Positions 15,911 to 59,894 of a DNA stretch of 64,000 nucleotides are shown here, piece after piece. The notes under the pieces were generated by a model that ran no database searches, was not told the DNA's origin, and was given only the letters and a program-made list of their open reading frames with translations. How positions within the stretch are numbered: the stretch's first letter is position 1; every line of letters begins with the position of its first letter. The stretch comes from an uncultured Planctomycetota bacterium (GTDB lineage: Bacteria > Planctomycetota > Planctomycetia > Isosphaerales > Isosphaeraceae): assembly GCA_963823665.1 (NCBI GenBank), contig CAWGMQ010000003.1, positions 32,001 to 96,000 of the forward strand, written 5' to 3'. The translations under genes and the position numbers were made by a program.

Positions 15911-16983
15911 TCACGCCAGGTCGCCTAGCTGTTCGCGCCGGTCGTGCTCGATCAGGGCGCTCGTCAGGGCGAGTAGGTCACCTTGGATGATCTGGTCCAG
16001 ATTGTACAGCGTCAGACCGATCCGATGATCGGTCATGCGGTTCTGAGGAAAATTATACGTGCGAATTCTCTGCGAGCGATCCCCAGATCCCATCAGTTTT
16101 CGGCGTGCTTCGTCGCGCTCGTTCCGCGCCGACTCGCGCATCTGGTCAAACAGCCGGCTGCGCAAGATCCGCATGGCCTTGGACTTGTTCTTGTGCTGGC
16201 TCCTTTCGTCCCGGCAATTGACGACCACGCCGGTGGGAAGATGGGTAATCCGGACGCCGCTTTCGGTCTTGTTCTGGTGCTGGCCGCCCGGCCCGCCGGC
16301 ACGCATGACGTCGATGAGGAGATCCTCCGGCCGGATCACGATGTCGACCTCTTCGGGCTCGGGAAGCACGACGACGGTCGCGGCCGAGGTGTGAATGCGC
16401 CCCTGGGCTTCGGTTTCGGGCACGCGTTGAACGCGATGGCCGCCGCTTTCAAACTGAATGTGGCGAAATGCGCGTGTCGCCGCTCAAGCTGAAGGAAACC
16501 TCGCGGAAGCCCGCCAGCTCGGTCGCTTCCATGTCGAGCATCTCGAACTTCCACCCCATTCTCTCGGCGAACCGGCGATACATCTCGTACAGGTCGCGTG
16601 CGAAGAGCGCCGCTTCTTCTCCACCGGTACCCGCCCGGATCTCCAGGATCACGGCCGCGTGCATGGCCCCGGCCTTTCGGTCGTAGAGCAAGTCGCGAAG
16701 TGCCTCACCTTCGCTCGCCTCCTTGTCTCGCAGCGCGGCCAGCTCGGCCTCGGCGTAACGACCGCATTTCGGGGTCGCTTTCGTGCTTGCAAACCTCCTC
16801 TGCCTCGGAAATCTGGCGGCCGAGATCGAGATAGCGCCCGTAACCGAGGGCGAGCTTCGCGAGCGAGCCCCGTTCCTTCGAGAGCGCGCGGACCTGACGT
16901 GCGTCAGACGTCACTTCCGGGTCAAGCAACGCTCGCTCGATTTCCAGAAATCGCTGATAATCCGCCTGGAGTTTCTCGAACAT
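15911..16983 (-). CDS. prfA: Peptide chain release factor 1; frame breaks near 16760, 16700 and 16470
   Basis: [18 protein letters not shown] (PxT motif), [20 protein letters not shown]. Confidence 0.95.
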
Positions 16984-21455: not shown

Positions 21456-24012
21456 TCACGGCGGCGGGCTATCCTTGCGGCCGTTGGGAAGCCTGTTACG
21501 AACGCCCCGTGGGGCAACCTTCTCCGGGAGCGCGCACTGCGCGTTCGTCTTGGCGCCGGCTGCCGGTATGGCGAAGAGATAGCCGACGACGTCCGAAAGC
21601 GTATCGACGAGCCGAAGGGTCAGGTCGGCCTTGACCTCCGCGGGAATGTCCACCAGGTCTTTCTCGTTGTGGCGCGGCAAGAGAACGATCTCGATGCCGG
21701 CCCGCCGTGCCGCCAGGATCTTCTCCCGCACGCCGCCGACGGGCAGCACTCTCCCGGTCAGCGTCACCTCTCCGGTCATCGCCAGATTCGGCACAATCGG
21801 CAGGGCTCGGAAGAAGCTGATCAGCGCGGCGGTGATCGCCACGCCCGCCGACGGACCATCCTTCGGGACGGCCCCGGCCGGCACGTGGATGTGCAGGTCC
21901 GTCTTGCCGAAGCGCGACGCATCGAGCGACAGCGCCTTGGCATTGCTGCGCAGGTAGCTGAGCGCGGCCTGGGCACTTTCCCGCATGGACTCGCCGAGCA
22001 AGCCGGTCAGCGTCAAGCTCCCCTTGCCGGTCATGCCGCTCGTCTCGATGAACAGGATCTCGCCGCCGGCCGGCGTCCAGGCCAGGCCCGTGGCGACTCC
22101 CGGCACGCCGGTCCGATCAGCCAGCTCGCGGAAGAACCGTGACGGCCCCAGCAGCTCGGCGGTATCCGCTGGCTCGACCTTGGTCGGCCCTTTCTGGCCC
22201 GTCCGCGCGGCGGCGGGCAACCTTGCGGCAGATGGCAGCAATCTCGCGCTCCAGGTTCCGCAGCCCGGCCTCCCGCGTGTAATCGGCGATGATCTTGCGG
22301 ATCGCCGCATCGGTGATCGAGAGGTCCTTGGCTTCGAGACCGTGTTGCTCGAGCTGCTTGGGTATGATGTACTTCTGCGCGATCTGCGTCTTTTCCTCCT
22401 CGCTGTAACCGGGAAGCTGCAACACTTCGAGCCGGTCCAGCAGCGGCGAAGGGATGGTCTCGAGCATGTTCGCAGTTGCAATGAACATCACCTTCGACAG
22501 ATCGAAATCAACGTCGAGGTAGTGGTCGCGGAAGGTCGAATTCTGTTCCGGGTCGAGCACCTCCAGGAGCGCCGCCGACGGGTCGCCGCGGAAATCCGCC
22601 CCCAGCTTGTCGACTTCGTCGAGCATGAACACGGGGTTGTTCGTCCCCGCCTTGCGGATCCCCTGAATCACACGACCGGGCAAGGCGGCCACATAGGTGC
22701 GACGGTGCCCTCGGATCTCCGCCTCGTCGTGCACCCCCCCCAGGCTCACCCGCACGAATTCACGGCCAAGCGCCTTGGCGATGCTTTTGCCTAGCGAGGT
22801 TTTGCCGGTTCCGGGCGGGCCGGCCAGGCACAGAATCGGCCCTTTCATGTCTCGCTTCAGCTTGCGCACCGCCAGGTATTCGAGAATCCGCTCCTTGATC
22901 TTCTCCAGGTCAAAATGGTCGTCGTCCAGCACCCGGCGCGCCCGCCTCAGGTCGAGGCGATCGCGGCTCGCCTTGCTCCACGGAAGAATCGCCAGCCAGT
23001 CCAGATACGTGCGCACGATCGAGTATTCCGCCGAGCTCGGGTGCATTCCCGAAAGCCGCTCCAGCTCACGCTCGGCCTCGCCCAGCACTTCCTGCGGCGG
23101 ATTCGCTTTCTTGATCCGCTCCCACATCTCTGCGACGTCGGGGTTCTCCCCCTCGCTTTCACCAAGCTCCTCCTGGATCGCCTTGAGCTGCTGGCGCAAG
23201 AAATGGTCGCGCTGGGCCTTGGTCAGCTCGCTGCCAACCTGCTCCTGGATCTTGGTCGAGAGCTCGAGGATCGCTAGCTGACGAGACAGGTATTGCCCCA
23301 GCCGCTCCAGACGAGCCCGCACGTTGATCTCACACAGCAGGCTCTGCTTCTCCTCGATCGTGAACGGAAGGCTCGACGCCAGCAGATCGGCCAGCCGGCC
23401 CGGCTCCTTGGTGTTGATCGCCGCAACTTGCAGCTCCTCCGGAATCTGCTGGCTCTGGTCCACCATCCGCTGAAAAAACCGGTTGACGTGATGCACGAGC
23501 GCATCCAGCTCGACACCCCCCTCGACGATGTCTTCATACGGCTCGATCCGCCCGATCAGATAGGGCTCCGTCTGCACCAGACCCACCAGCCGCGCCCGAT
23601 GCTGGCCCTGGCAGACGATCCGCGTCGAGCCATCGGGGAACTTGAGCATCTTCAGGATCAAACCGACGCATACGACCGGATAAAGATCGTCGATTCCCGG
23701 CGCGTCCGTCTCCGGATGAAGCTGACTCACTAACCCGACCATCCGCTCGCCCACCATGCAATCGTCAATCAACCGGATACCGCTGGGCCGGTTGACGACC
23801 AGCGGAACGACCGTCTGCGGAAAGACCACATCCGACCGCAGCGGCAAGAGCGGAATCTGGCACGGCTGCAGAGCCTGGTCATCCTCGCGCTCCGACAGCA
23901 CGAGGAGCCCACCGGCCTGGCCGGCTTTGCGGACCCGTTCCTCCACTGTCGGCACAACCGATTCGCCCGACGGCTTCCTCGGCTTTCTCGTTCGCGTTTT
24001 TCTTGGAGACAT
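21456..24012 (-). CDS. lon: ATP-dependent Lon protease; frame break near 22200
   Basis: LON N-domain, GPPGTGKTS, GHRRTY, LDEVDK, GLAWT, PKDGPSAG, GGVREK. Confidence 0.96.
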
Positions 24013-24239
24013 GGCGGCTTTCTGAATAGACCACGACCGCACGATCGCGGATGAATGATGATGATGAGGTCGGACGCCCTCCCACCCCCGGTCGGACCGT
24101 ACATGATTGTGGTTCGACGCCCCGAAAGAAAGGGATGACCTCACCCACATCATAGAATCAATCACACATCCCCGCGACCGTCAAACGGGCGGTTCTTTCT
24201 ACGTCGCGCCCGCCCCCCCGGTGCGCGGAGCTTCCGTCT

Positions 24240-28362: not shown

Positions 28363-29307
28363 ATGCCCCTCACAGCCGCCTTGCTGGCAATGATCGTTGC
28401 TTTTCTCCAAGACGAGCCCGACTCCTCGAGCATCGTCGCCGCCGGCGCCAAGCTGGAAAAGGTCTGGGGCGACGGCTCGTTCACGGAAGGGGGCGCGCTT
28501 GACCAGGACGGCACGATGCTCTTTTCCGACATCGGCAACCGGATCATGCGGTTCGACCCGCGAACCGGCCGCACCTCCGTCTTTCGCGAGCCGAGCGGCC
28601 GCGCCAACGGGATGGTCTTCGACGGCCTCGGCCGCCTGATCGTCGCCGAGGGAGCCAACACCGGCGGCGGCCGCCGCGTCTCGGTCACCGACCGCGATGG
28701 CACGATTCGCAAGCTCGCCGACAGCTACGACAACAAGCGGTTCAACAGCCCCAACGACGTCGCCGTCGATCGCGAAGGACATGTGTATGTCTCCGACCCG
28801 CGCTACGTCGGCGACGAGCCTCGCGAGCTCGATTCGGAAGGAGTCTACTTGATCGGACTCCAGGGCGACGTCATCCCGCTTTTGACCACGGCAATTAAAC
28901 CCAATGGCCTGGCGATCTCGCCCGACGAGAAGACACTGTACATTTCCGACAACGGCTCCAGGCGGCGGGCGTTGATCGCGGCCGTTCGAGGGCCGGACGG
29001 CAAGGTTTCGAAAGCTCACGTCATCCATGACTTCGGCGCCGGCCGCGGAATCGACGGCATGACCGTCACCACCGACGGCCGGATCGTTGCCGCCGCGGCC
29101 TTGGACGGCAAGCCCGCTGTGATCGTCCTCTCGCCCGAGGGAAAAATCCTGGGCGGCATCGCCGTCCCCGAAGCACCCGCCAATGTCGAATTCGGCGGCG
29201 ACGACGGTAAGACGCTCTACATTTGCGCGGGAAAGAGCCTTTACCGGGTCAACACGACGATGACCGGCTATCGTCTAGGGCCTCCCCCGAAGAGAAACAG
29301 GAGTTAG
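28363..29307 (+). CDS. SMP-30/gluconolactonase family protein
   Basis: FTEG, FSDI, ANG, RFNSPND, SDPRY, PNG, DGM, NVEFGG. Confidence 0.93.
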
Positions 29308-29315
29308 ATCACGCG

Positions 29316-30152
29316 ATGCGCTTCACCAAGATGCACGGAATCGGCAACGATTACGTGTATGTCAGCACCTTCGACCAGCGCCCGCCGAGTGACCCCATCG
29401 CACTGGCGCGCGCCGTGAGCGACCGCCACACCGGCGTCGGCGGCGACGGCCTCATCATGATCATGCCGTCCGAACGCGCAGATGCGAAAATGCGAATGTT
29501 CAACGCCGACGGCTCCGAAGGCGAGATGTGCGGCAACGGCGTTCGCTGCGTCGCCAAGTACCTGTTCGACCATGGTATCGCCCAGAAGCAGCAGTTGACG
29601 ATCGAGACCGGCCGCGGAATCCTCACCCTCGATCTCGAGATCGACGGCCGCCGCGTGAAACGCGTCCGGGTCGACATGGGCACGCCCATCCTCTCCGCCG
29701 CCCTGATCCCGACGCTCCTGCCCGGCGACCCGCCGATTGACGCCCCGATCGAGGTCGGCGAGGGAACACTCCACGTCACCGCAGTCTCGATGGGCAACCC
29801 CCACATCGTCACTTACGACCCGGATGTCGCGTCGTTTCCGCTGGAAACCGTCGGCCCGTTACTCGAGCACCACACGGCATTCCCGCGCCGCGTGAACGTG
29901 CACGTGGTCGAGGTGAAGAGCCCCAGCGAGGTCACCATGCGCACCTGGGAGCGCGGCTCCGGCATCACTTTGGCGTGCGGCACGGGAGCTTGCGCCGTCT
30001 GCGTCGCCGGCGTTCTTACGGGCCGCACCGGACGCACTTTGCTCGCCCACCTCCCCGGCGGCGACCTCGAGCTCCACTGGCCCGGCGATGGCTCGCCCGT
30101 CTTCATGACCGGCCCAGCAACCGAGGTGTTTTCGGGTGAGTGGCCAGGTTGA
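29316..30152 (+). CDS. dapF: Diaminopimelate epimerase
   Basis: [40 protein letters not shown]. Confidence 0.97.
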
Positions 30153-30174
30153 ATACCGCGGGACGCGCTCCGTC

Positions 30175-30204
30175 GTAGCAGGCGCACTTCGTGTGCCGCT
30201 TCCG
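30175..30204 (+). repeat. GTAG-type REP-like palindrome
   Basis: GTAGCAGGCGCACTTCGTGTGCC just after dapF. Confidence 0.5.
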
Positions 30205-30401
30205 TCGTCCCGACTTTTTCAAAAACAAGTCCAGCGGCGAGAATGTCGAAGGGCTTTCATATTTCGGGCACGATAGCTAGCGTGCATCTCAAACACAAGA
30301 TTTCGAGAATTCGACGCGTTCTGTCGTAATCGGCTGACGGCGCAACGATGTTATGTCGCGAGGCAACTTGCCGTTTTTTTTGGGGGCGCCGCGGTTTAAT
30401 T

Positions 30402-33400
30402 TCACGCATTGGCAGCGGCATTGTCGGCGATCGCAAGCTCCGCATCCCCCGCCTGTCTACGCTGAACGTAGATGATGCCGCGATTGACGCGAGCCTGCGC
30501 CCGCTGGTCGGCGGGAGCATCGCTCATCTCGATCACGGCGGTGTAGTCGGCGATCGCAAGCTCCGCATCCCCTGCCTGTCCACGCTTGCCGTAGGCGAAG
30601 CCGCGACTGAAGCGAGCCCTCGCCCGTTGGTCTGCGGGAGCATCGGTCATCCCGATCACGGCGGTGTAGTCGGCGATCGCAAGCTCCGCATCCCCCGACC
30701 GCCCACGCTGGCCGTAGGCGATGCCGCGATTGAAGCGAGCCCTCGCCCGCTGGTCTGCGGGAGCATCGGTCATCCCGATCACGGCGGTGTAGTCGGTGAT
30801 CGCAAGCTCCGCATCGCCCGACCGCCCACGCTGGCCGTAGGCGAAGCCGCGATTGAAGCGAGCCCTCGCCCGCTGGTCTGCGGGAGCATCGGTCATCTCG
30901 ATCACGGCGGTGTAGTCGGCGATCGCAAGCTCGGCATCCCCCGCCTGCCCATGCTGGCCGTAGGCGATGCCGCGACTGCCGCGAGCCTTCGCCCGCTGGT
31001 CTGCGGGAGCATCGCTCATCTCGATCACGGCGGTGTAGTCGGCGATCTCAAGCTCCACATCCCCCGCCTGCCCATGCTGGCCGTAGGCGATGCCGCGGTT
31101 GACGCGAGCCTTCCCCCGCTGGTCTGCGGGAGCATCGCTCATCTCGATCACGGCGGTGTAGTCGGCGATCTCAAGCTCCACATCCCCCGACTGCCCACGC
31201 TGGCCGTAGGCGAAGCCGCGGTTGAGGTGAGCGTTCGCCCGCTGGTCTGCGGGAGCGTCGGTGATCTCGATCACGGCGGTGTAGTCGGCGATCGCAAGCT
31301 CCACATCCCCCGACTGCCCACGCCCGCCGTAGGTGATGCCGCGATTGACGCGAGCGTTCGCCCGCTGGTCCGCCGGAGCATCGGTCATCTCGATCACGGC
31401 GGTGTAGTCGGCGATCGCAAGCTCCGCATCCCCCGCCTGCCCACGCTGGCCGTAGGTGATGCCGCGATTGACGCGGGCCTTCGCCCGCTGGTCTGCGGGA
31501 GCATCGGTCATCTCGATCACGGCGGTGTAGTCGGCGATCGCAAGCTCCACTTCCCCCGCCTGCCCACGCTGGCCGTAGGTGATGCCGCGATTGACGCGAG
31601 CCTTCGCCCGCTGGTCTGCGGGAGCATCGGTCATCTCGATCACGGCGGTGTAGTCGGCGATCGCAAGCTCCACTTCCCCCGCCTGCCCACGCTGGCCGTA
31701 GACGTAGCCGCGGCCGATGCGAGCCATCGCCCGCTGGTCTGCGGGAGCATCGGGCATCTCGATCACGGCGGTGAAGTCGGCGATCTCAAGCTCCACATCC
31801 CCCGCCTGCCCACGCTGGCCGTAGGCGTAGCCGCGAATGACGCGAGCCTTCGCCCGCTGGTCTGCGGGAGCATCGGTCATCTCAATCACGGCGGTGTAGT
31901 CGGCGATCGCAAGCTCCACATCCCCCGCCTGCCCACGCTGGCCGTAGGCGATGCCGCGAATGACGCGAACCTGCGCCCGCTGGTCTGCGGGAGCATTGGG
32001 CATCTCGATCACGGCGGTGTAGTCGGCGATCTCAAGCTCCACATCCCCCGCCTGTCTACGCTGACCGTAGGTGGTGCCGCGACTGAAGCGAGCCCACGCC
32101 CGGTGGTCTGCGGGCGCATCGGGCATCTCGATCACGGCGGTGAAGTCGGCGATCGCAAGCTCCAAATCCCCGACCTGACAACGCTGGCGGTAAGTGATGC
32201 CGCGATTGGCGCGAGCCCTCGCCCTCTGGTCTGCGGGAGCATCGGTCATTTCAATCACGGCGGTGTAGTCGGCAATCGCACGCTCCGCATCCCCGACCTG
32301 CCCCCGATCTGCGTAGACGCGGCCGCGACGGAAGCGGGCCAACGCACGTTCTTGAAGCGGGAGGACGTTGGAGTGTGTGACAACGAAGTCCAAGTCGGGG
32401 AGTGCGCGTAACGGGATTGGGGCCGAAGTAGACATCGGATGCGGCTGCGAAACGCTTGCGCACGCCGGCTGCCAACGCCTGATTGATGTTGCTGGTGGAC
32501 TCTCCGGTGAAGATCGCCTGGGCGTGCGTTAGATCCGCTTTGATTGTTTCGATTGCATCGCTGAGGTCCAGCTCGTCCGAGGCGCCTGTAGCGGCAGACG
32601 GGTCAAGATCTGTGCCGTACGTCCCCGGTGTCGAGTCAGACGAAGGAACTCGAGCGCGGTCGGTCCTTGTCGAGAGCGTGATTCCTTTGAGATCACAAGT
32701 ATCGAGTTTTTCCCGCGCGACGAGGATCGGCTCACGAAACAAGCGAGGGAGGGTCGAGCCGACAAGGTGTTGATGCATCTCGGCAAGCAAATTGTCGGCA
32801 CTCTTGATCGGCACGTAGAAGGCGTCACGCTTCGAAAGGATCTCCTTAGCATCAGCAGTGAGGTCGCTGCTATTCGGACTCGTGCCGCGATCACACCAGT
32901 AGAGATTGAAGGTGAAACGGTCAACGCTTTTGAGCGCCCGGGTGATAGAATCATCCCACCCACTGAAGCCGATGATCAGCACCGCGTGTTTTCGGAAGTA
33001 GTCCGGAAGCAGGCTGTGATTCTTCGTGGCGAACTCCTCGATCTCCTCGGGGCTACTGGCGAGGATGTAACGATAGATGCTGCCGTGCGCGTGAACCAGA
33101 TGAAGGGCATCCAAGACCCCGTCATCATCAGGCGCTTGAAGCGTGTCAGGGCGATCGGAGACGAAGTACGGGGCATTGAACAACTGAAGCGATCGCTGAA
33201 GTAGGGGATCGAAATTGGTGGTGAAAACGGTTCCGAGCAGGTGCGGCAACTCGGCGATGATGGAGGCCAGAAAAAGGTGTGCAGCATTAAGTCGATGCCC
33301 GGCGCGGCGAATGATGTCCCCGAAGTACTGCCGAACCATGTGTGCATTGTACAGTCCCGGCGTACAAACGGGGGCCAGCGCAAATCTATACGCCTCTCCC

Positions 33401-33771
33401 ACCGTTTCACGCGAGGGAAGGCCCTCGGCATCGAGCTGAAAAGGCTTTCTCTTGGGGTCGGCGGGCTGGTCGTTCTGACACGCCAGCACGCGCTGCCAGA
33501 ACTCTCTGGCTTCTTCCTTAATGCCGGCCGCAAACGCAATCTCTTTTCGGTCGAGGTAATCCTGCAACTTCGGACCGCCCGGTTCGACTCGCTTACACCA
33601 AAGCCACCAAGGAAGGTCTTCACGGACGAGTTGGGACGTGGTAGGGACGATGGGAACACTGAAGCCAGAGCCCAGAATCAGAGTAAACGCGGGCGGCTTA
33701 CCAGCCGCAGGTCGGCAGCAAGCCTTCATTCGCACAAATAACTCGTCACGTTTTAGAATATTGTACGCCAT
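30402..33771 (-). CDS. SIR2-family (SIR2_2-like) NADase fused to a 16-unit TPR-like array, ~1120 aa; frame break near 32410
   Basis: LILGSGFS, FTTNFD, HAHGS, IIGFSGWD in ORF 32251..33852; continues ...FGPNP/LRALPDLDF... into repeat ORF 30402..32435. Confidence 0.88.
30405..32354 (-). repeat. 123-bp tandem repeat, 15 full units plus 1 partial (41-aa TPR-like)
   Basis: ATCACGGCGGTGTAGTCGG recurs every 123 nt; consensus DQRAKARVNRGITYGQRGQAGDVELAIADYTAVIEMTDAPA. Confidence 0.97.
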
Positions 33772-33789
33772 TGAAATCATCCTAATCGT

Positions 33790-33905
33790 TGCCAGGTAAC
33801 CGGCCGCGAGCTTGCGTAGCTCGTCATAGAGCAGCAGAAAGAGCTGCGCCAAAGCTTTCGAGCGGCCTTCTTCGTCAAAGGTGAAGCTCGGGTGATCTCG
33901 TTCAT
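33790..33905 (-). pseudogene. N-terminal remnant of a planctomycete ECF sigma factor (TIGR02999-like)
   Basis: MNEITR then, in a shifted frame, ALAQLFLLLYDELRKLAAGYLA; nothing of the rest follows. Confidence 0.7.
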
Positions 33906-34302
33906 GAAGTTAAGGATACTCGGCCGGGACAGCTCCGTCGAAGATAGGCCGGCAATTGCTGAGTGTGGGATCAAGCCACGAAGACGAACAACCTGTCCCA
34001 ATACGTCGAACCAACCAGTGATTTTCGTAGCAACGACGCGACTTTGCGTTGTAGTTGGGGCTTCATAGCGATCCAGATGTCACGTAAGAGTTCGACAATT
34101 TCATCGGCACGCTGTGTCGGCGGCCGCACCGGTTCAGGCCGCAGCCCGATGACCTCTCCATCGACCAATTTACGTTATCACTAGGCGTTTCATTTTCCGT
34201 AGTTCCCACAATATAAGCATGCCTATGGCGTGCCCGCCTGAAAAACAGTTATCCTTAACTGTATGGAGAAAACGACTTAAGACAAGGTCCCGCCTCCCTC
34301 AT

Positions 34303-34349
34303 TGGGCGCGGTTCTCCAGACCCCGCCCCCAACCCGACCGCAGGTCTCC
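34303..34349. repeat. REP-like element
   Basis: GGGCGCGGTTCTCCAGACCCCGCCC...CGACCGCAGGTCTCC imperfect palindrome after the DUF1501 stop. Confidence 0.45.
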
Positions 34350-34363
34350 TGCCAGTCCATGCC

Positions 34364-35843
34364 TCAAGCCAACACATCCTTGACCACCGTCCCATGCACA
34401 TCCGTCAGCCGATGATGCCGCCCCTGATACGAAAACGTCAGCCGCTTATGGTCCACACCCAGGCAGTGTAAAATCGTCGCATGCAGATCGTGCACGTGCA
34501 CCGGATTCGCCGTGATGTTGTAACAGAACTCGTCCGTCGCCCCATACGTGATGCCCGGCTTGATCCCGCCTCCCGCCATCCAGATCGTGAAACACCGAGG
34601 ATGGTGGTCCCGCCCGTAATCCGCCGCCGAAAGCGGCCCCTGGCAATAAACCGTCCGCCCGAACTCGCCCCCCCAGACCACCAGCGTGTCCTCGAGCAGC
34701 CCGCGCTCCTTGAGATCCGCAACCAGCGCCGCCGCCGGCCGGTCCGTATCCCGGCACTGCCCCGCGATCTGCTTGGGCAAGTGCGTGTGCTGGTCCCACC
34801 CTCGATGGAAAAGCTGAATGAACCGCACCCCCCGCTCGGCCAGCCGTCGCGCCAGCAGACAGTTGGCCGCAAACGTTCCCGGCGTGCGCGACTCCGGTCC
34901 ATAGAGGTCAAATATCGAGCCCGGCTCCCCCGATAAATCCGTCAGCTCCGGCACGGAAGCCTGCATCCGGAACGCCATCTCGTACTGGGCAATTCGCGTG
35001 AGGATCTCCGGATCGCCGAACTCGCGATGATTGATCGCGTCCAGCTTCCCCAGGTCGTCGAGCGTCCGGCGCCTCGCCGCCGCCGAGATCCCCGGGGGAT
35101 TCGACAGATACAGCACCGGGTCGCCCACCGATCGAAACTTGATTCCCTGATAACTCGTCGGCAGAAAACCGCTTCCCCACAGACGATCATAGAGCGGCTG
35201 GTCATTAGGGTTCCCCGATCCCCGCGAGATCATCACCACAAACGCAGGCAAATCCTGGTTGTCGCTTCCCAGCCCGTACGCCACCCACGACCCGATGCTC
35301 GGGCGCCCCGCAAGCTGGGCCCCGGTCTGGAAAAAACGTCACAGCCGGGTCGTGATTGATCGCCTCGGTGTGCATCGAGCGAATGAAGCAAAGCTCGTCC
35401 GCAATTTTCGCCGTGAACGGCATCAGCTCCGAAACCTGCGCACCGCTCCCACCGTGTCGCTTGAACGCAAACTTGCTCGCCGCTACCGGAAACTTGTCTT
35501 GCCGCGAGGTCATCCCCGTCAGCCTCTGCCCCATCCGGATCGAATCCGGCAGGTCGTCGCCCTGTAAACGCGCAAGCCCCGGCTTGGGATCAAACAGATC
35601 CATCTGCGACGGCGCACCCGACTGAAACAGGTAGATTACCCGCTTCGCTCGCGCCGCGAAGTTCGGAAAGCCAGCCACGCCGGCCCCCGTCGAAGAAGCG
35701 CCAGCTCCCCCGTCGGCCGCCTCGAGCTCGGCCCCGAAAAGATGCGCCAGAGCGATCGCCCCAACCCCGACGCCGGCGCGGCCGAAGAGCTGCCGGCGGG
35801 TAATCAACATCTCATGCTCGAGCCGCGGGTCCACCGGAATCAC
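34364..35843 (-). CDS. DUF1501 family protein with Tat-like leader; frame break near 35335
   Basis: [56 protein letters not shown]. Confidence 0.93.
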
Positions 35844-38800
35844 TCCTTGGTCAGCGTCTCGTCCAGGTTGAGGATGAGTTGGGCGATCGCCGTATACGCC
35901 GCCAGCTCCACCGCGTCGAGCCGCGCGTCGGGCCGCGACTCCCCCTGCCCGATCAGCGCCAGCGCCCCCTTGCGATCGCGCCGGAACCGCTCGAGCTGAT
36001 TGCGAAATCCATCGACCAGGATCGCCAGCTCCACCGGCCGCGGCCGCCGCCCCGTCGCCTCACGAAACGCCCTCTCGAGCCGCCCCTCGATCGAGCGTTC
36101 TTGCCCGCACATCAGCCGCTCGGCAAATCCGCGCGCGGCCTCCACGAACGTGACGTCATTCAGCACGTCGAGCGCTTGCAGCGGCGTATTCGTTCGCGAT
36201 TCCCGAACGATGCAGGTCTCCCGCCCTGGTGCATCGAATGCCACCATCGCAGGCGGCGGCACGGTACGCTTCCAGAACGTGTAAAGACTGCGACGGTACA
36301 GGCTCGGCCCGTGATCCTGCACATAATCCGCATCAGCCAGCTCATTCCAGAGCCCCGCCGGTTGATACGGCTTCACCGAAGGACCGCCCGCCCGCTCAAC
36401 CAGAAGCCCGGCAAGCGCCAGCGCCTGATCACGGATCATCTCCGCCGAAAGCCGGAGCCGCGGACCGCGGGCCAGCAGCCGGTTCTCGGGATCAAGCGCT
36501 CAGCGCCTCGTGGCTCACCCGCGACGATTGCCGGTACGTCGCACTCGTCACCATCGTCCGCAATAAGCCCTTCACATCCCAGTCCGAGCTCATGAGTTCA
36601 ACCGCCAGCCAGTCGAGCAGCTTGGGGTGCACCGGCGGCTCTCCCTGCGCACCGAAGTCGTCGAGCGTCTTCACAATCCCCGTGCCAAAAAGCATCTGCC
36701 AATCGCGATTCACAGCCACCCGCGCCGCAAGCGGTTGCTCCGGAGAAACCAACCAGGTCGCCAGCTCGAGCCGGTTGCGCACCAGCCTCTCGTTGCCTCC
36801 GTTCAAACACCGTGGCACGCCCGCCGTGACTTTCGCGCGCGGCCGGTCGTACTGGCCCCGCTCGAGCACGTGCGTCACCCGCGGCACCGGCATCTCTTCC
36901 ATCACCATCGTCGTCGGTATCTGCTCGAAAAACGCCGCCTCTTCGCGGCTCACCGCCCGGCGCTCCGTATCCAGTTTCCGAATCCATTCAGGAGCCCCTC
37001 TTGCAAGAAAACACTCGTGGATCTTCCGGGCCGCCCCGGCCGGCCGTGCCTTCGCCGGCGTGGCCAGGATCTCGGCAATCGACTCCTTTGCGGCCAGGAT
37101 CGAGAGTTCGTCTTCGGGCACTGCCGCCGAGTAGATGAACAGGTCGCGGAGCGCACCGCTGAATCGGCTGCCCGGGCCGCCACCCCAGCCCAGCCGGAGC
37201 GGCTCCTTGGTCAGAAACGTCTGATTCAGCTCGTCAAGATGAACCACCATCGCCGCGGGCTTTCCGTTCAGGTAAACCTTCACGCCCTTCGCATACCGTG
37301 AACCATCGTACGTCACCGCGACGTGCGTCCACACCCTCGCGGCGAGCGAGTCCTTCGTCTCCATGCGAATCGCGTCGTCCAGCCAGCGCTTCACCAGGTT
37401 CACCTGCACCTTGCCCTTCTCGAGCACGATGCTGAAGCCCTCGCCCAGCGGCTCATCAACCATCCGCGAGAGAATCGTGCCGCCCCGGCCCCCGGGATTA
37501 ACCCATAGGCTGAACGTGAACTTGTCGTAAAAGCCAAACCCCGCGACGTCGCCCAGAACCGCACCCGGACGGCATTCAGCCGGCGAGGGATGCACAACCA
37601 GATTCTCCTCGATCATCCAATCCGTGGGCGGATTCCTCTGCACAGCGCTTTCCCACTCCGCCTGCGCCGCGGCGATCTTGGGGTCATCCGCACTCGCGTC
37701 TGACTCCAGGAAGGCCGCCAAAAGCACCAGCTCCGCGTGCTTTTCCACCTGCGCCCGAGTCGGTGCTTTGATCATCGGCGGCGAATTGCCGTACTTGAGC
37801 GCTCGCCCTTCTTCCGGAACGTTATTGAACAGCGCAAAGAACCGGTAAAACTCCTCCTGCCCGATCGGGTCGAACTTATGGCTGTGACAGCGGGCGCACG
37901 CCAGGGTGAGTCCCAACCAGACGGTCGCGGTCGTATCGACGCGGTCCACCACATACTCGACCGCGTATTCCTCGGGGATGATGCCCCCTTCTCCATTGCC
38001 GCGATGGTTGCGGTTGAAGCCGGTCGCGATCTTCTGCTTCAGCGTCGCCTTGGGCAGCATGTCGCCCGCGAGTTGCTCGATCGTGAACTGGTCAAACGGC
38101 ATGTTGCGGTTATATGCGTCGATCACCCAGTCGCGCCATCGCCACATCACTCGAGGTGCGTCGGTCTGATACCCGTTCGTATCCGCGTATCGGGCCGCGC
38201 TCAGCCATCGGGTCGCCATCCGTTCGCCGAGTCGCGGCGAGGCAAGCAGCCGATCGACCACCTTCTCGTAGGCATTCGGGCTCTCGTCCCGCTCAAACGC
38301 GTCGATCTCCTCGGCTGTCGGCGGCAGCCCCGTGAGATCGAGCGTCACGCGCCTGAGTAAGATCCCGCGCTCCGCCTCGCGTGACGGTTTGAGCCCTTCC
38401 CGCGCCAGTCGCGACCGGATGAACGCGTCGATCGGATTCCGGATCCCCTCACGTCCTCGAACGGCCGGCACCTCCGGCCGCACCGGCGGAATGAACGACC
38501 AGTGCCGCTGCCACTTGGCCCCCTCGCTGATCCACTGCTTGAGCTTTTCGATCTCCGAGGGGCTGAGCGACTTCCCCGACTTCGCCGGCGGCATCCGCTC
38601 GCCGGGATCCTTCGCCGTGATCCGCCAGTAAACCTCGCTGGACTCGAGATCACCCGGCACAATCGCCCGCCCGCCATCCCGCTCGGCTTTGGCCGAAGCC
38701 TCATCGTCGAGCCTCAAATCCGCCTTGCGCCGCGCAGCGTCGGGTCCATGACATTGATAACACCGATCCGAAAGAATCGGCCGGATGTCGCGGTTGTAAT

Positions 38801-38915
38801 CAATCGGCCCGGCCGCACCAGAACGATTCGCCGCGCCGGCTTGGTCACCGGTCAGCAAACCAACCACGACGGCGGCAAACGCGCTGGCAACCCACCCCAC
38901 GGAATGCCCTCGCAC
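35840..38915 (-). CDS. Planctomycete cytochrome c / DUF1549 / LamG / DUF1553 (PSD1) protein; frame break near 36495
   Basis: CYQCHG, HWSF, NPIDAF, ARYADTNG, CARCHSHKFDP, WTHVAVTYDGS, RRSLYTFWKR, TNTPLQAL. Confidence 0.93.
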
Positions 38916-39144
38916 GAAGAGTTCCTGATCGTGCCGACACGTTCTTTCCCGGCCCTCAGTATAAACGCCACTCGCCAGGAGATCCAAGCCGCGAGCCGAC
39001 GCCGACCGATGAACGACCACGATGTCCGGATCGCGTTTGCTCCTAGGCAACTTCCTGCGCCGTTCCGCTCACTCTTGACCCGCAGTGGAAGTCGGGCTCG
39101 AATGATCGGCGAGAGAGAGCGGGCGTCTACCTCGGATCAAGCCG

Positions 39145-59836: not shown

Positions 59837-59894
59837 GGTGGGTGAAACCCACCGTTTGCTGATTTAACCATAGGTGGGTATCACCCACCCTACG
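59833..59894. repeat. Inverted REP pair (GTAG type)
   Basis: GTAGGGTGGGTGAAACCCACC ... GGTGGGTATCACCCACCCTAC. Confidence 0.8.

Follow-up and report, generated by a model that had tools for sequence, protein, structure and literature searches.

We asked whether a locus in a very large bacterial genome encodes, as a preliminary description of the sequence had proposed, a single-gene immune receptor in which a SIR2 NADase is joined directly to a TPR array. This raises the further questions of whether the two parts form one gene, what kind of SIR2 head and repeat array they contain, and how far the architecture departs from known defence systems. Throughout, "the window" refers to the whole 64-kb stretch of DNA that was analyzed.

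Organization of the SIR2-TPR locus

The ORF listing divides the locus into two minus-strand frames, one carrying SIR2 (32251-33852) and one carrying the repeats (30402-32435), which overlap and are both open over 32251-32528. Its features are collected in Table 1. The assigned start codon agrees with the N-termini of relatives (MAYNILK...), and the SIR2 motifs GSGFS, TTNFD, HGS and GFSGWD, described as intact, are all present in the translation. The earlier count of 16 TPR-like units of 41 residues is roughly right, although strictly the array consists of 15 full units and one partial unit. No NTPase lies between SIR2 and the repeats, in agreement with the preliminary description: SIR2_2 is the sole Pfam family in the first frame, and the gap is only ~85 residues long. 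In the AF2 models this linker comprises a disordered stretch (~residues 378-396) and then two long helices that run into the array; it matched no Pfam family.

Several features reported for the surroundings were also recovered. The flanking genes dapF and DUF1501 were both identified in place, the nearby AT-richer DNA corresponds to a G+C content of 0.54-0.59 over 32500-34500 versus ~0.62-0.69 in the surroundings, and the REP-like element has at least 50 further genomic copies at 81-92% identity. The proposed sigma remnant is present by its 71% DNA identity to G000:C10:1165069-1165185 but weak, with a Pfam Sigma70_ECF match (E 0.027) below the cut-off. A scan of 30100-34400 returned no promoter-like and two terminator-like sites, no excess over shuffled sequences, and Pfam found no integrase or transposase among the small ORFs of 33772-34168.

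Table 1. Coordinates of the SIR2-TPR gene, its parts and its surroundings in the window
Feature	Position	Strand	Remarks
Whole SIR2-TPR gene	30402..33771	-	~1,120 codons if one frame; ATG 33771, stop 30402-30404
SIR2 (SIR2_2-type) domain	32692..33771	-	Residues ~1-360; Pfam, PADLOC SIR2 models, AF2
Linker	32425..32691	-	~85 residues between SIR2 fold and first repeat; AF2 models
Frame-break site	32412..32424	-	One extra base within ggccccaatcccg
15 full TPR-like units	30495..32339	-	41 residues (123 nt) each
Partial 16th unit and C-terminus	30405..30494	-	30 residues
Interval from dapF stop to DUF1501 stop	30153..34363	.	4.2 kb
Sigma-like remnant	33796..33918	-	Immediately upstream of SIR2-TPR start codon
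REP-like dispersed 50-nt element	34302..34353	.	Genome-wide copies
dapF	29223-30152		Neighbour of SIR2-TPR gene
DUF1501	34364-35843		Neighbour of SIR2-TPR gene

The frame break

An indel had been suspected near 32410. Judged against fused relatives, exactly one extra base is present within 32412-32424, a stretch that contains CCCC and CCC runs. Here 13 nt separate DVYF (32425-32436) from LRALPDLDF (from 32411), where relatives have four codons, and in the alignment the junction is colinear with four fused relatives once one base is removed. A search for relatives found 53, most of them 650-866 aa long with SIR2_2 plus TPR, and TPRs are present in 118 of the 123 family proteins of at least 600 aa. 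Judged by these alignments, the SIR2 and repeat frames are one gene, as first proposed. RF-1, Lon, DUF1501 and PSD1 are each broken into two frames within the same window, which makes an assembly indel likely at this site too; in a same-genus genome the orthologous genes are also split, at other positions. The break regions of RF-1 and PSD1 contain no run of four or more, so homopolymers cannot account for all of the errors. The break in the SIR2-TPR gene probably arose in the assembly and not by mutation.

A genuine frameshift would imply either a gene that has recently been inactivated or two independently translated products: a SIR2 protein extended by 60 out-of-frame residues, and a TPR protein whose start codon is the ATG at 32435. 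The break is, after all, present in the assembly as given, that ATG exists, and two loci from other MAGs (L048 and L027) also have SIR2 and TPR in separate frames or ORFs. None of the public sequencing runs contains the window's stretch (best share of sampled words 0.18; the small shares in runs X1-X4 are uninformative on habitat), and no read or contig from X1-X4 spans the break. Contigs from X2 and X4 provide 100%-identical pieces of 150-160 nt, the nearest of which (32428-32578) ends before it, while those from X3 represent a relative ~95% identical that falls short of the junction. We nevertheless consider a real frameshift improbable: at least four other genes of the window are split, including RF-1 and Lon, which points to frequent assembly indels; the two halves are stop-free over ~444 and ~677 codons; fusion is seen in 118 of the 123 long relatives; and L048 comes from what is apparently a long-read MAG and may hold the same type of error. 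Two separate genes were likewise rejected as the main reading, given the fused relatives, the stop-free halves and the split genes of the window.

The SIR2 head

The SIR2 head matches Pfam SIR2_2 (PF13289) at 38.1 bits, above the cut-off of 24.5, with an E value of 2e-9. Its Rossmann GxG motif, GSGFS, spans G34-S38, the asparagine of TTNFD is Asn186 (33214-33216), the histidine of HGS is His229 (33085-33087), and GFSGWD occupies G268-D274. N186, H229, G268, G271, W272 and D274 are invariant in all 37 aligned family sequences. The best PADLOC matches, to pAgo-associated SIR2 (E 7.8e-17), the candidate PDC-S65 (E 9.2e-16) and Aga_SIR2, concern the SIR2 part only: the pAgo model covers positions 133-296 of 1030, and the match to PDC-S65 covers only the SIR2 core of its profile (positions 138-290 of 592).

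The AF2 model of the domain has a pLDDT of 87.2. Structural comparison with VIA-align, as well as a Foldseek search, related it to the SIR2 domain of SPARSA (Z 22.8, rmsd 3.9, 295 aligned), with lower VIA-align Z scores for KomC (17.9), ThsA (17.4), SIR2-HerA (17.2), DSR2 (15.4) and Avs5 (15.2); classical sirtuins reached ~14.8. By profile and by model, the head is of the defence-NADase kind, nearest to anti-phage NADases, with NADase activity itself predicted.

A different role for the same fold would be that of a protein-modifying sirtuin, whose SIR2 head deacylates or ADP-ribosylates a protein recruited by the TPRs and so serves regulation instead of NAD+ depletion. Classical sirtuins do share the fold (Z ~14-15), and substrate recruitment is a common function of TPR arrays; one example, O-GlcNAc transferase, was recovered in the structural search with the array. 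Yet structural similarity is clearly greater to the defence NADases (Z 22.8 and 17-18 versus 14-15), the matched Pfam family is SIR2_2 and not SIR2, and the gene is patchily distributed, all of which makes this role very unlikely.

The TPR array

Tandem Repeats Finder detects a 123-bp period with 15.3 copies and 91% matches over 30423-32303. The units share 75-96% of their DNA sequence with one another and have a mean identity of 0.78 at the protein level. With TPR_8 (43.9 bits, cut-off 25.7) and TPR_1 (33.2 bits, cut-off 27.8) found by Pfam in the whole protein, the HMM search places SIR2_2 and both TPR families above cut-off, which agrees with the domains first assigned. Each unit is built from helix A, a loop, helix B and a second loop, and is 41 residues long rather than 34, both loops being longer. 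The model of a relative, P0010 (pLDDT 88.9), has an array that matches consensus-TPR (CTPR) superhelices (TMt 0.78) and also the TPR domain of OGT.

The residues that vary between units fall on one face of the repeat. In the window array the variable positions are 3, 4, 7, 8 and 41, which form a stripe along helix A, the helix that in TPR superhelices generally lines the concave face. The six most variable unit positions in 25 relatives, picked without using the window array, are 7, 3, 10, 15, 11 and 8. At these six positions the pN/pS of the window array is 2.02, compared with 0.75 at the other 35, values that, among paralogous and recombining repeats, do not amount to a formal test of positive selection; random six-codon sets reached the pN of the chosen positions in 7 of 20,000 draws. 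The overall array pN/pS of 1.0 could alternatively reflect relaxed constraint. For all 15 window units tested, the nearest unit lies inside the same protein, and family-wide this holds for 79 of 183 units against 6.8 expected. The array is homogenized, with its variable residues in one helix-A stripe, as in NLR sensors. To judge from this pattern and from the models, it appears to behave like a diversifying sensor.

Comparison with known defence systems

The closest parallel in overall design is DSR2 of Bacillus subtilis (PDB: 8wyb, 8yg1), likewise a single polypeptide that runs from an N-terminal SIR2 head through a linker to an alpha-solenoid sensor at the C-terminus, with neither an NTPase nor a partner gene. 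The HEAT-like solenoid of DSR2 directly binds a phage tail tube protein and activates the NADase without an NTPase (PMC11850899). The two proteins differ in the sensor, which in DSR2 is irregular, HEAT-like and accompanied by a helical-bundle middle domain, and here consists of regular, near-identical 41-residue TPR units. The head is also nearer to SPARSA than to DSR2 (Z 22.8 versus 15.4), no DSR model is among the eight PADLOC families matched at E <= 0.01, and full-length alignment to DSR2 chains gives a TM of ~0.2 and an rmsd above 30. A SIR2 domain with an alpha-solenoid sensor and without an NTPase is therefore not new, being known from DSR2; what is new is confined to the sensor, a TPR array of near-identical repeats.

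The other SIR2 systems resemble the protein in parts. SPARSA (short pAgo SIR2-APAZ; PDB: 8y80, 8jl0) has the closest SIR2 head by both profile and structure, but carries APAZ and acts with a partner Argonaute that senses nucleic acid, where the present protein has a TPR array; neither neighbour, dapF or DUF1501, is an Argonaute. Avs5 (AVAST type 5; PDB: 9nc9, 9jap) shares an N-terminal SIR2 effector and has C-terminal repeats that sense phage proteins, but places a STAND NTPase between effector and sensor, which is missing here. A distant relative of the SIR2 head, P0053, does carry NB-ARC/NACHT. In Thoeris ThsA a C-terminal SLOG domain takes the place of the TPR array, and a ThsB (TIR) gene is adjacent; SIR2-HerA has an adjacent HerA ATPase gene. 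Neither neighbour of the SIR2-TPR gene corresponds to these.

Highly similar repeats are known from NLRs. In work on fungal and bacterial NLRs (Dyrka et al. 2014, PMC4986451; Dyrka et al. 2020 preprint), the repeats are ~80-90% identical with few variable positions on the binding face, a pattern read as concerted evolution plus diversification. The units described here, 0.78 identical and with a helix-A variable stripe, resemble those of NLRs with conserved TPR, WD or ANK repeats; such receptors, however, contain a NOD (NACHT or NB-ARC) switch, which this protein lacks. The Effector-TPR-GreA/B-C-PIN system (Kaur et al. 2021, PMC8195603) couples rapidly evolving TPRs to an N-terminal effector that varies and can be a SIR2 domain. 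There, constant GreA/B-C and PIN domains follow the TPRs, whereas the SIR2-TPR protein ends with the array, and Pfam found neither domain in it.

Distribution and genomic context

No orthologue of the gene was found in 40 relatives, in which the only three matches are 21-30% identical over ~120-170 residues. In the same-genus genome G001, ~90 bp with a palindromic element stand between dapF and DUF1501 where the window has 4.2 kb; this element is absent from the 4.2-kb interval but occurs at 59837-59889 of the window. The SIR2-TPR gene is accessory and non-core, in an inserted position, and its SIR2 part has a lower G+C content. That it is a stand-alone gene, as first described, extends to the family, with no conserved neighbour or partner gene in 39 loci.

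At 50% identity the family forms ~117 clusters, of which none is characterized as far as our literature searches reach; its members come mainly from MAGs of Planctomycetota and Acidobacteriota. One member lies on an IMG/VR (predicted viral) contig, where it is surrounded by ORFans. Phage and plasmid collections contained no close relative, only distant SIR2-domain matches (identity of at most 34%, coverage of at most 60%).

To look for defence islands, we considered 89 neighbouring ORFs from 12 of the 39 loci, leaving aside family genes, ORFs more than ~5 kb away and loci L028-L030. Pfam identified mostly housekeeping genes among these ORFs, and PADLOC found no system, with only seven generic-domain matches, one of them the TPR half of a family member itself. 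The relatives thus appear to lie outside recognizable defence islands, which counts against the defence reading. So do the absence of a conserved partner gene, the absence of close relatives from known phages and plasmids, and the TPR partner, which is nearly constant across the family and not swapped, unlike in many conflict systems.

These observations bear on a further interpretation, in which the same intact protein is a ligand-gated SIR2 switch serving not antiviral defence but another conflict or regulated cell death, such as self/non-self recognition or, in bacteria with complex lifestyles, a dormancy triggered by stress; fungal NLR-like incompatibility receptors would be its analogues. 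The housekeeping neighbourhoods and the concentration of the family in the two phyla are compatible with such a role, and highly conserved, diversifying repeats occur in fungal allorecognition NLRs (PMC4986451). On the other hand, the structurally closest SIR2 heads all belong to anti-phage NADases, the same-genus genome lacks the gene, and one member lies on the predicted viral contig. We regard a non-antiviral switch as rather unlikely.

Proposed mechanism

The reading that we favour, with a probability of roughly 0.55, is that the SIR2-TPR protein is a one-protein, DSR2-like system of ~1,120 residues, combining a sensor without an NTPase with an NAD+-destroying SIR2 effector; this function is predicted. 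In this scheme, a foreign protein, likely of phage origin, would dock in the variable groove of the TPR superhelix and thereby activate the SIR2 head, probably through oligomerization of SIR2 heads; the active heads may then drain NAD+, and the infected cell would stop as NAD+ is lost, in a form of abortive infection.

More tentatively, and with some doubt, the protein can be seen as an immune receptor whose array is homogenized, rapidly reshuffled and hypervariable in its groove, as in fungal NLRs, but which has no NTPase switch; its activity is again predicted. Such a receptor would have a 16-unit TPR superhelix wired straight to a SPARSA-type SIR2 NADase, and repeat shuffling alone could retune what the cell treats as foreign. 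The preliminary description had likewise suggested an NLR-like sensor-effector without an NTPase. What holds of this is the architecture, that is, one gene, no NTPase, a defence-type head and a diversifying array. The principle is not new, given that a SIR2 domain with an alpha-solenoid and no NTPase is already established for DSR2, and the location of the relatives away from defence islands weighs against its defence role.

Significance

If active, the DSR2-like protein would represent a plain TPR superhelix that gates a SIR2 NADase without a STAND ATPase, and would broaden the DSR2 principle to include a modular, easily retuned sensor. With near-identical repeats that differ at a few groove positions, the array is reminiscent of designed consensus TPR binders, and the family could therefore be a natural scaffold for programmable sensor-effectors. 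To our knowledge, phage defence has been little studied in Planctomycetota and Acidobacteriota; an active SIR2-TPR protein would be a first candidate defence gene in these phyla.

Domain organization of the SIR2-TPR gene

The SIR2-TPR gene was found by ORF search as two minus-strand frames, both open across 32251–32528. The first contains the motifs GSGFS, TTNFD, HGS and GFSGWD. Its only family in the Pfam scan is SIR2_2, matched above the curated cut-off (E = 2e-9). The second encodes the repeat array, which has a period of 123 bp with 15.3 copies and 91% matches in Tandem Repeats Finder, corresponding to 15 complete 41-residue units and one partial unit of 30 residues. The summed scores of TPR_8 and TPR_1 exceed their Pfam cut-offs; further Pfam families matching the array were disregarded as unrelated, since the array is a low-complexity repeat. 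The preliminary description, which had noted intact SIR2 motifs and 16 TPR-like units of 41 aa with no NTPase between them, was thus right in its observations. The gene is present in one copy in its own genome.

Coordinates of features within the window
Feature	Position	Strand	Basis or remark
SIR2 frame	32251–33852, probable ATG 33771	-	ORF search
TPR-array frame	30402–32435	-	ORF search
RF-1, split in two frames	15914–16483 / 16452–16910		same Pfam profile continued
Lon, split in two frames	21459–22487 / 22120–24180		same Pfam profile continued
DUF1501, split in two frames	34364–35284 / 35205–35843		same Pfam profile continued
PSD1 (PSCyt/PSD1), split in two frames	35840–36439 / 36492–39050		same Pfam profile continued
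REP-like element, 50 nt	34302–34353		
Palindromic element	59837–59889		
ORF, 432 codons	27065–28363	-	no Pfam family
TPR protein, 930 residues	42320–45109	-	

The two frames form a single gene

A word-indexed search returned 53 relatives, mostly 650–866 aa long, that carry SIR2_2 and TPR families and are labeled at source just “SIR2 family protein” or “tetratricopeptide repeat protein”. A search restricted to longer proteins added forms of up to 1,005 aa, and a HMMER scan run exhaustively over 1.84 billion cluster representatives yielded 117 clusters at E ≤ 1e-30, rising to 224 when the limit was relaxed to E ≤ 1e-10. Pooling these searches gave 186 proteins, 123 of them at least 600 aa long. 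At least two of the 41-residue units, detected with an HMM made from the window's units, occur in 94 of these 123, and ordinary Pfam TPRs in 24 of the remaining 29, so that fusion of SIR2 to TPRs (118/123) is the rule in the family. The five long proteins without TPRs comprise one SIR2 with NB-ARC/NACHT, one SIR2 with a beta-helix and three with SIR2_2 alone. Distant relatives of the SIR2 head have other partners: P0053 carries NB-ARC/NACHT, P0127 a right-handed beta-helix, and P0052 and P0030 are listed with TIR_2 (PF13676), so the effector has occasionally exchanged its partner domain.

Relatives are continuous across the junction, with the pattern RF..A.DLY(L/F), four residues, then (V/L)(K/R)ALP.LDFVV. 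In the window's SIR2 frame, DVYF extends to 32425, and LRALPDLDF takes over in the TPR frame at 32411, leaving 13 nt where four codons belong and therefore exactly one extra base inside 32412–32424, a stretch containing CCCC and CCC runs. The indel suspected near 32410 is thereby located, and comparison with the fused relatives indicates that the two frames are one gene. The SIR2 and TPR parts also lie in separate frames or ORFs in two loci from metagenome-assembled genomes, L048 (7866–11552) and L027 (170–2179), which may represent further assembly indels or true split forms.

None of the indexed sequencing runs contains the stretch with the frame break; run contigs supplied short pieces of 100% identity in two runs, the closest stopping at 32428. 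Four other genes in the window are likewise split, the orthologues of DUF1501 and PSD1 in the same-genus genome G001 are also split, at different positions, and neither half of the SIR2-TPR gene contains a stop. On these grounds, the frame break is probably an assembly error. The assembly seems to carry about one indel per 10 kb, and frame breaks in this genome should therefore not be called pseudogenes without reads.

The SIR2 head resembles defence effectors

In the HMM and PADLOC searches proposed in the preliminary description, PADLOC profiles matched the SIR2 core alone, namely pAgo-associated SIR2 (E = 7.8e-17), the candidate PDC-S65 and Aga_SIR2 models; DSR, ThsA and Avs models were absent from the matches. 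An AlphaFold2 model of residues 1–443 (pLDDT 87.2, pTM 0.83) retrieved only defence SIR2s as top Foldseek matches. In VIA-align, the predicted head was closest to SPARSA SIR2-APAZ (Z 22.8, rmsd 3.9 over 295 residues), followed by KomC (Z 17.9), ThsA (Z 17.4), SIR2-HerA (Z 17.2), DSR2 (Z 15.4) and Avs5 (Z 15.2), with classical sirtuins and FAM118B at Z of about 14–15. Asn186 of TTNFD, His229 of HGS and the glycines, Trp and Asp of GFSGWD are invariant in all 37 aligned sequences.

A long, homogenised TPR array

The model of P0010, a full-length relative with a 57% identical SIR2 part (pLDDT 88.9, pTM 0.78), contains an array that matches consensus-TPR superhelices (TMt 0.78) as well as the TPR domains of OGT and SPY. 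The 41-residue unit is predicted to comprise an 18-residue helix A (positions 36–41 and 1–12), a 4-residue loop, a 13-residue helix B and a 6-residue loop. In TPRs, helix A generally lines the concave groove. The variable unit positions of the window array (41, 3, 4, 7 and 8) follow an i, i+3/4, i+7/8 spacing, which places them on a single face of helix A.

Because scoring pN/pS at sites picked by their variability is circular, test positions were chosen instead from the arrays of 25 relatives, as the six most variable (7, 3, 10, 15, 11 and 8). At these, pN/pS in the window array is 2.02, compared with 0.75 at the other 35, and 7 of 20,000 random six-codon sets reached that pN; as the units are recombining paralogues, this describes a pattern and is not a formal test of selection. 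Each of the 15 window units has its nearest unit within its own protein; across 26 proteins this holds for 79 of 183 units, against 6.8 expected under exchangeable units. Protein-specific residues are common to all units of an array, as is a 3-residue deletion in the relative P0025. The unit sequences thus indicate that arrays are homogenised within proteins. By the unit HMM, the window array is the longest observed among family proteins, the next having 12 units. A second large TPR protein nearby, of 930 residues, is built from canonical TPRs over nearly its whole length, includes a BTAD-like stretch and is unrelated to the 41-residue array.

An accessory gene between dapF and DUF1501

The gene is not core: no orthologue of the SIR2 part was found in 40 genomes related at the level of genus (one), family (23) or class (16), which gave only three matches of 21–30% identity over about 120–170 residues (E 4e-8 to 9e-4). 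G001 is colinear with the window on either side, and the distance from the dapF stop to the DUF1501 stop is about 90 bp there, compared with 4.2 kb in the window. G+C is lower (0.54–0.59) across the SIR2 part and upstream region, consistent with the AT-richer surroundings described previously, and the SIR2 frame falls short of the GC3 cut-off of 0.72, a value reached by 72 other frames. No integrase, transposase or target duplication was seen in the interval.

Of the nearby elements in the preliminary description, the REP-like one is confirmed, with at least 50 more copies (81–92% identical) on at least eight contigs, often in tandem clusters. The sigma remnant is present, although its match is weak. 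A relative in a peat metagenome run (X3), about 95% identical, can be aligned as far as 33796, which lies 25 nt before the start codon; past this point its sequence is sigma-like too, related but not the same, suggesting that the remnant travels with the gene. The G001 spacer (locus L009) is filled by a palindromic element, GGTGGGTGAAACCCACC and its complement, that also occurs elsewhere in the window, and thus represents a second dispersed repeat family common to the genus. The 432-codon ORF is Gly/His/Arg-rich, with three NLATTGTGATH motifs and GGHGGGHGGGHGG runs.

Genomic context of relatives

We located 39 relative loci in one-per-species genomes, from Planctomycetota (Limnoglobus, Gemmata, Urbifossiella, Tepidisphaeraceae, Phycisphaerae), Acidobacteriota (Thermoanaerobaculia), Tahibacter, Armatimonadota and a few distant taxa. 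When all locus ORFs were clustered, no neighbour family occurred in more than three loci, in agreement with the stand-alone gene described earlier; some three-locus clusters come from the single genus Limnoglobus (L021, L023, L029) and two others span different MAGs. A set of 89 neighbouring ORFs from 12 of these loci encodes mainly housekeeping enzymes by Pfam, and PADLOC recognised no defence system among them, giving seven generic-domain matches. The IMG/VR predicted viral contig L060 (47.7 kb), which may be a prophage or other mobile region, carries a family member with 48% identity to the SIR2 part in the window; the ten ORFs flanking this member gave no Pfam match and one PHROG match, of unknown function. 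The family is thus a solo gene, scattered outside islands, and this distribution weakens the defence reading.

Proposed mechanism and relation to known systems

The NLR-like sensor-effector without an NTPase switch proposed in the preliminary description retains its fused gene, NTPase-free architecture and predicted defence-type SIR2 fold; the location of relatives outside defence islands counts against it. SPARSA SIR2 heads are activated by oligomerisation. By analogy with DSR2 and SPARSA, we infer that the TPR groove would take up a foreign protein or peptide, that binding would free or assemble the SIR2 heads, and that these would hydrolyse NAD+. DSR2 joins a SIR2 head to an alpha-solenoid that binds phage tail tube protein, whereupon the NAD+ pocket opens, without an NTPase (PMC11850899). 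The SIR2-TPR protein shares this NTPase-free design, here as predicted from sequence. Kaur et al. 2021 (PMC8195603) describe a different architecture, effector-TPR-GreA/B-C-PIN, with SIR2 as one of the effectors; SIR2 does not feature in Kaur et al. 2020. Strong conservation between internal repeats is reported for fungal and bacterial NLRs (PMC4986451; Dyrka et al. 2020 preprint). Titles and abstracts on DSR2, Avs5, SAMD9 and FAM118 do not mention an NTPase-less SIR2-TPR protein, and our literature search, which covered subscription journals thinly, found no published description, so an earlier mention is possible.

The SIR2-TPR feature is confirmed as a single gene. Its product is a predicted DSR2-like SIR2 sensor-effector without an NTPase, a design already known; what is notable is the long, homogenised TPR array, varying at putative groove positions.
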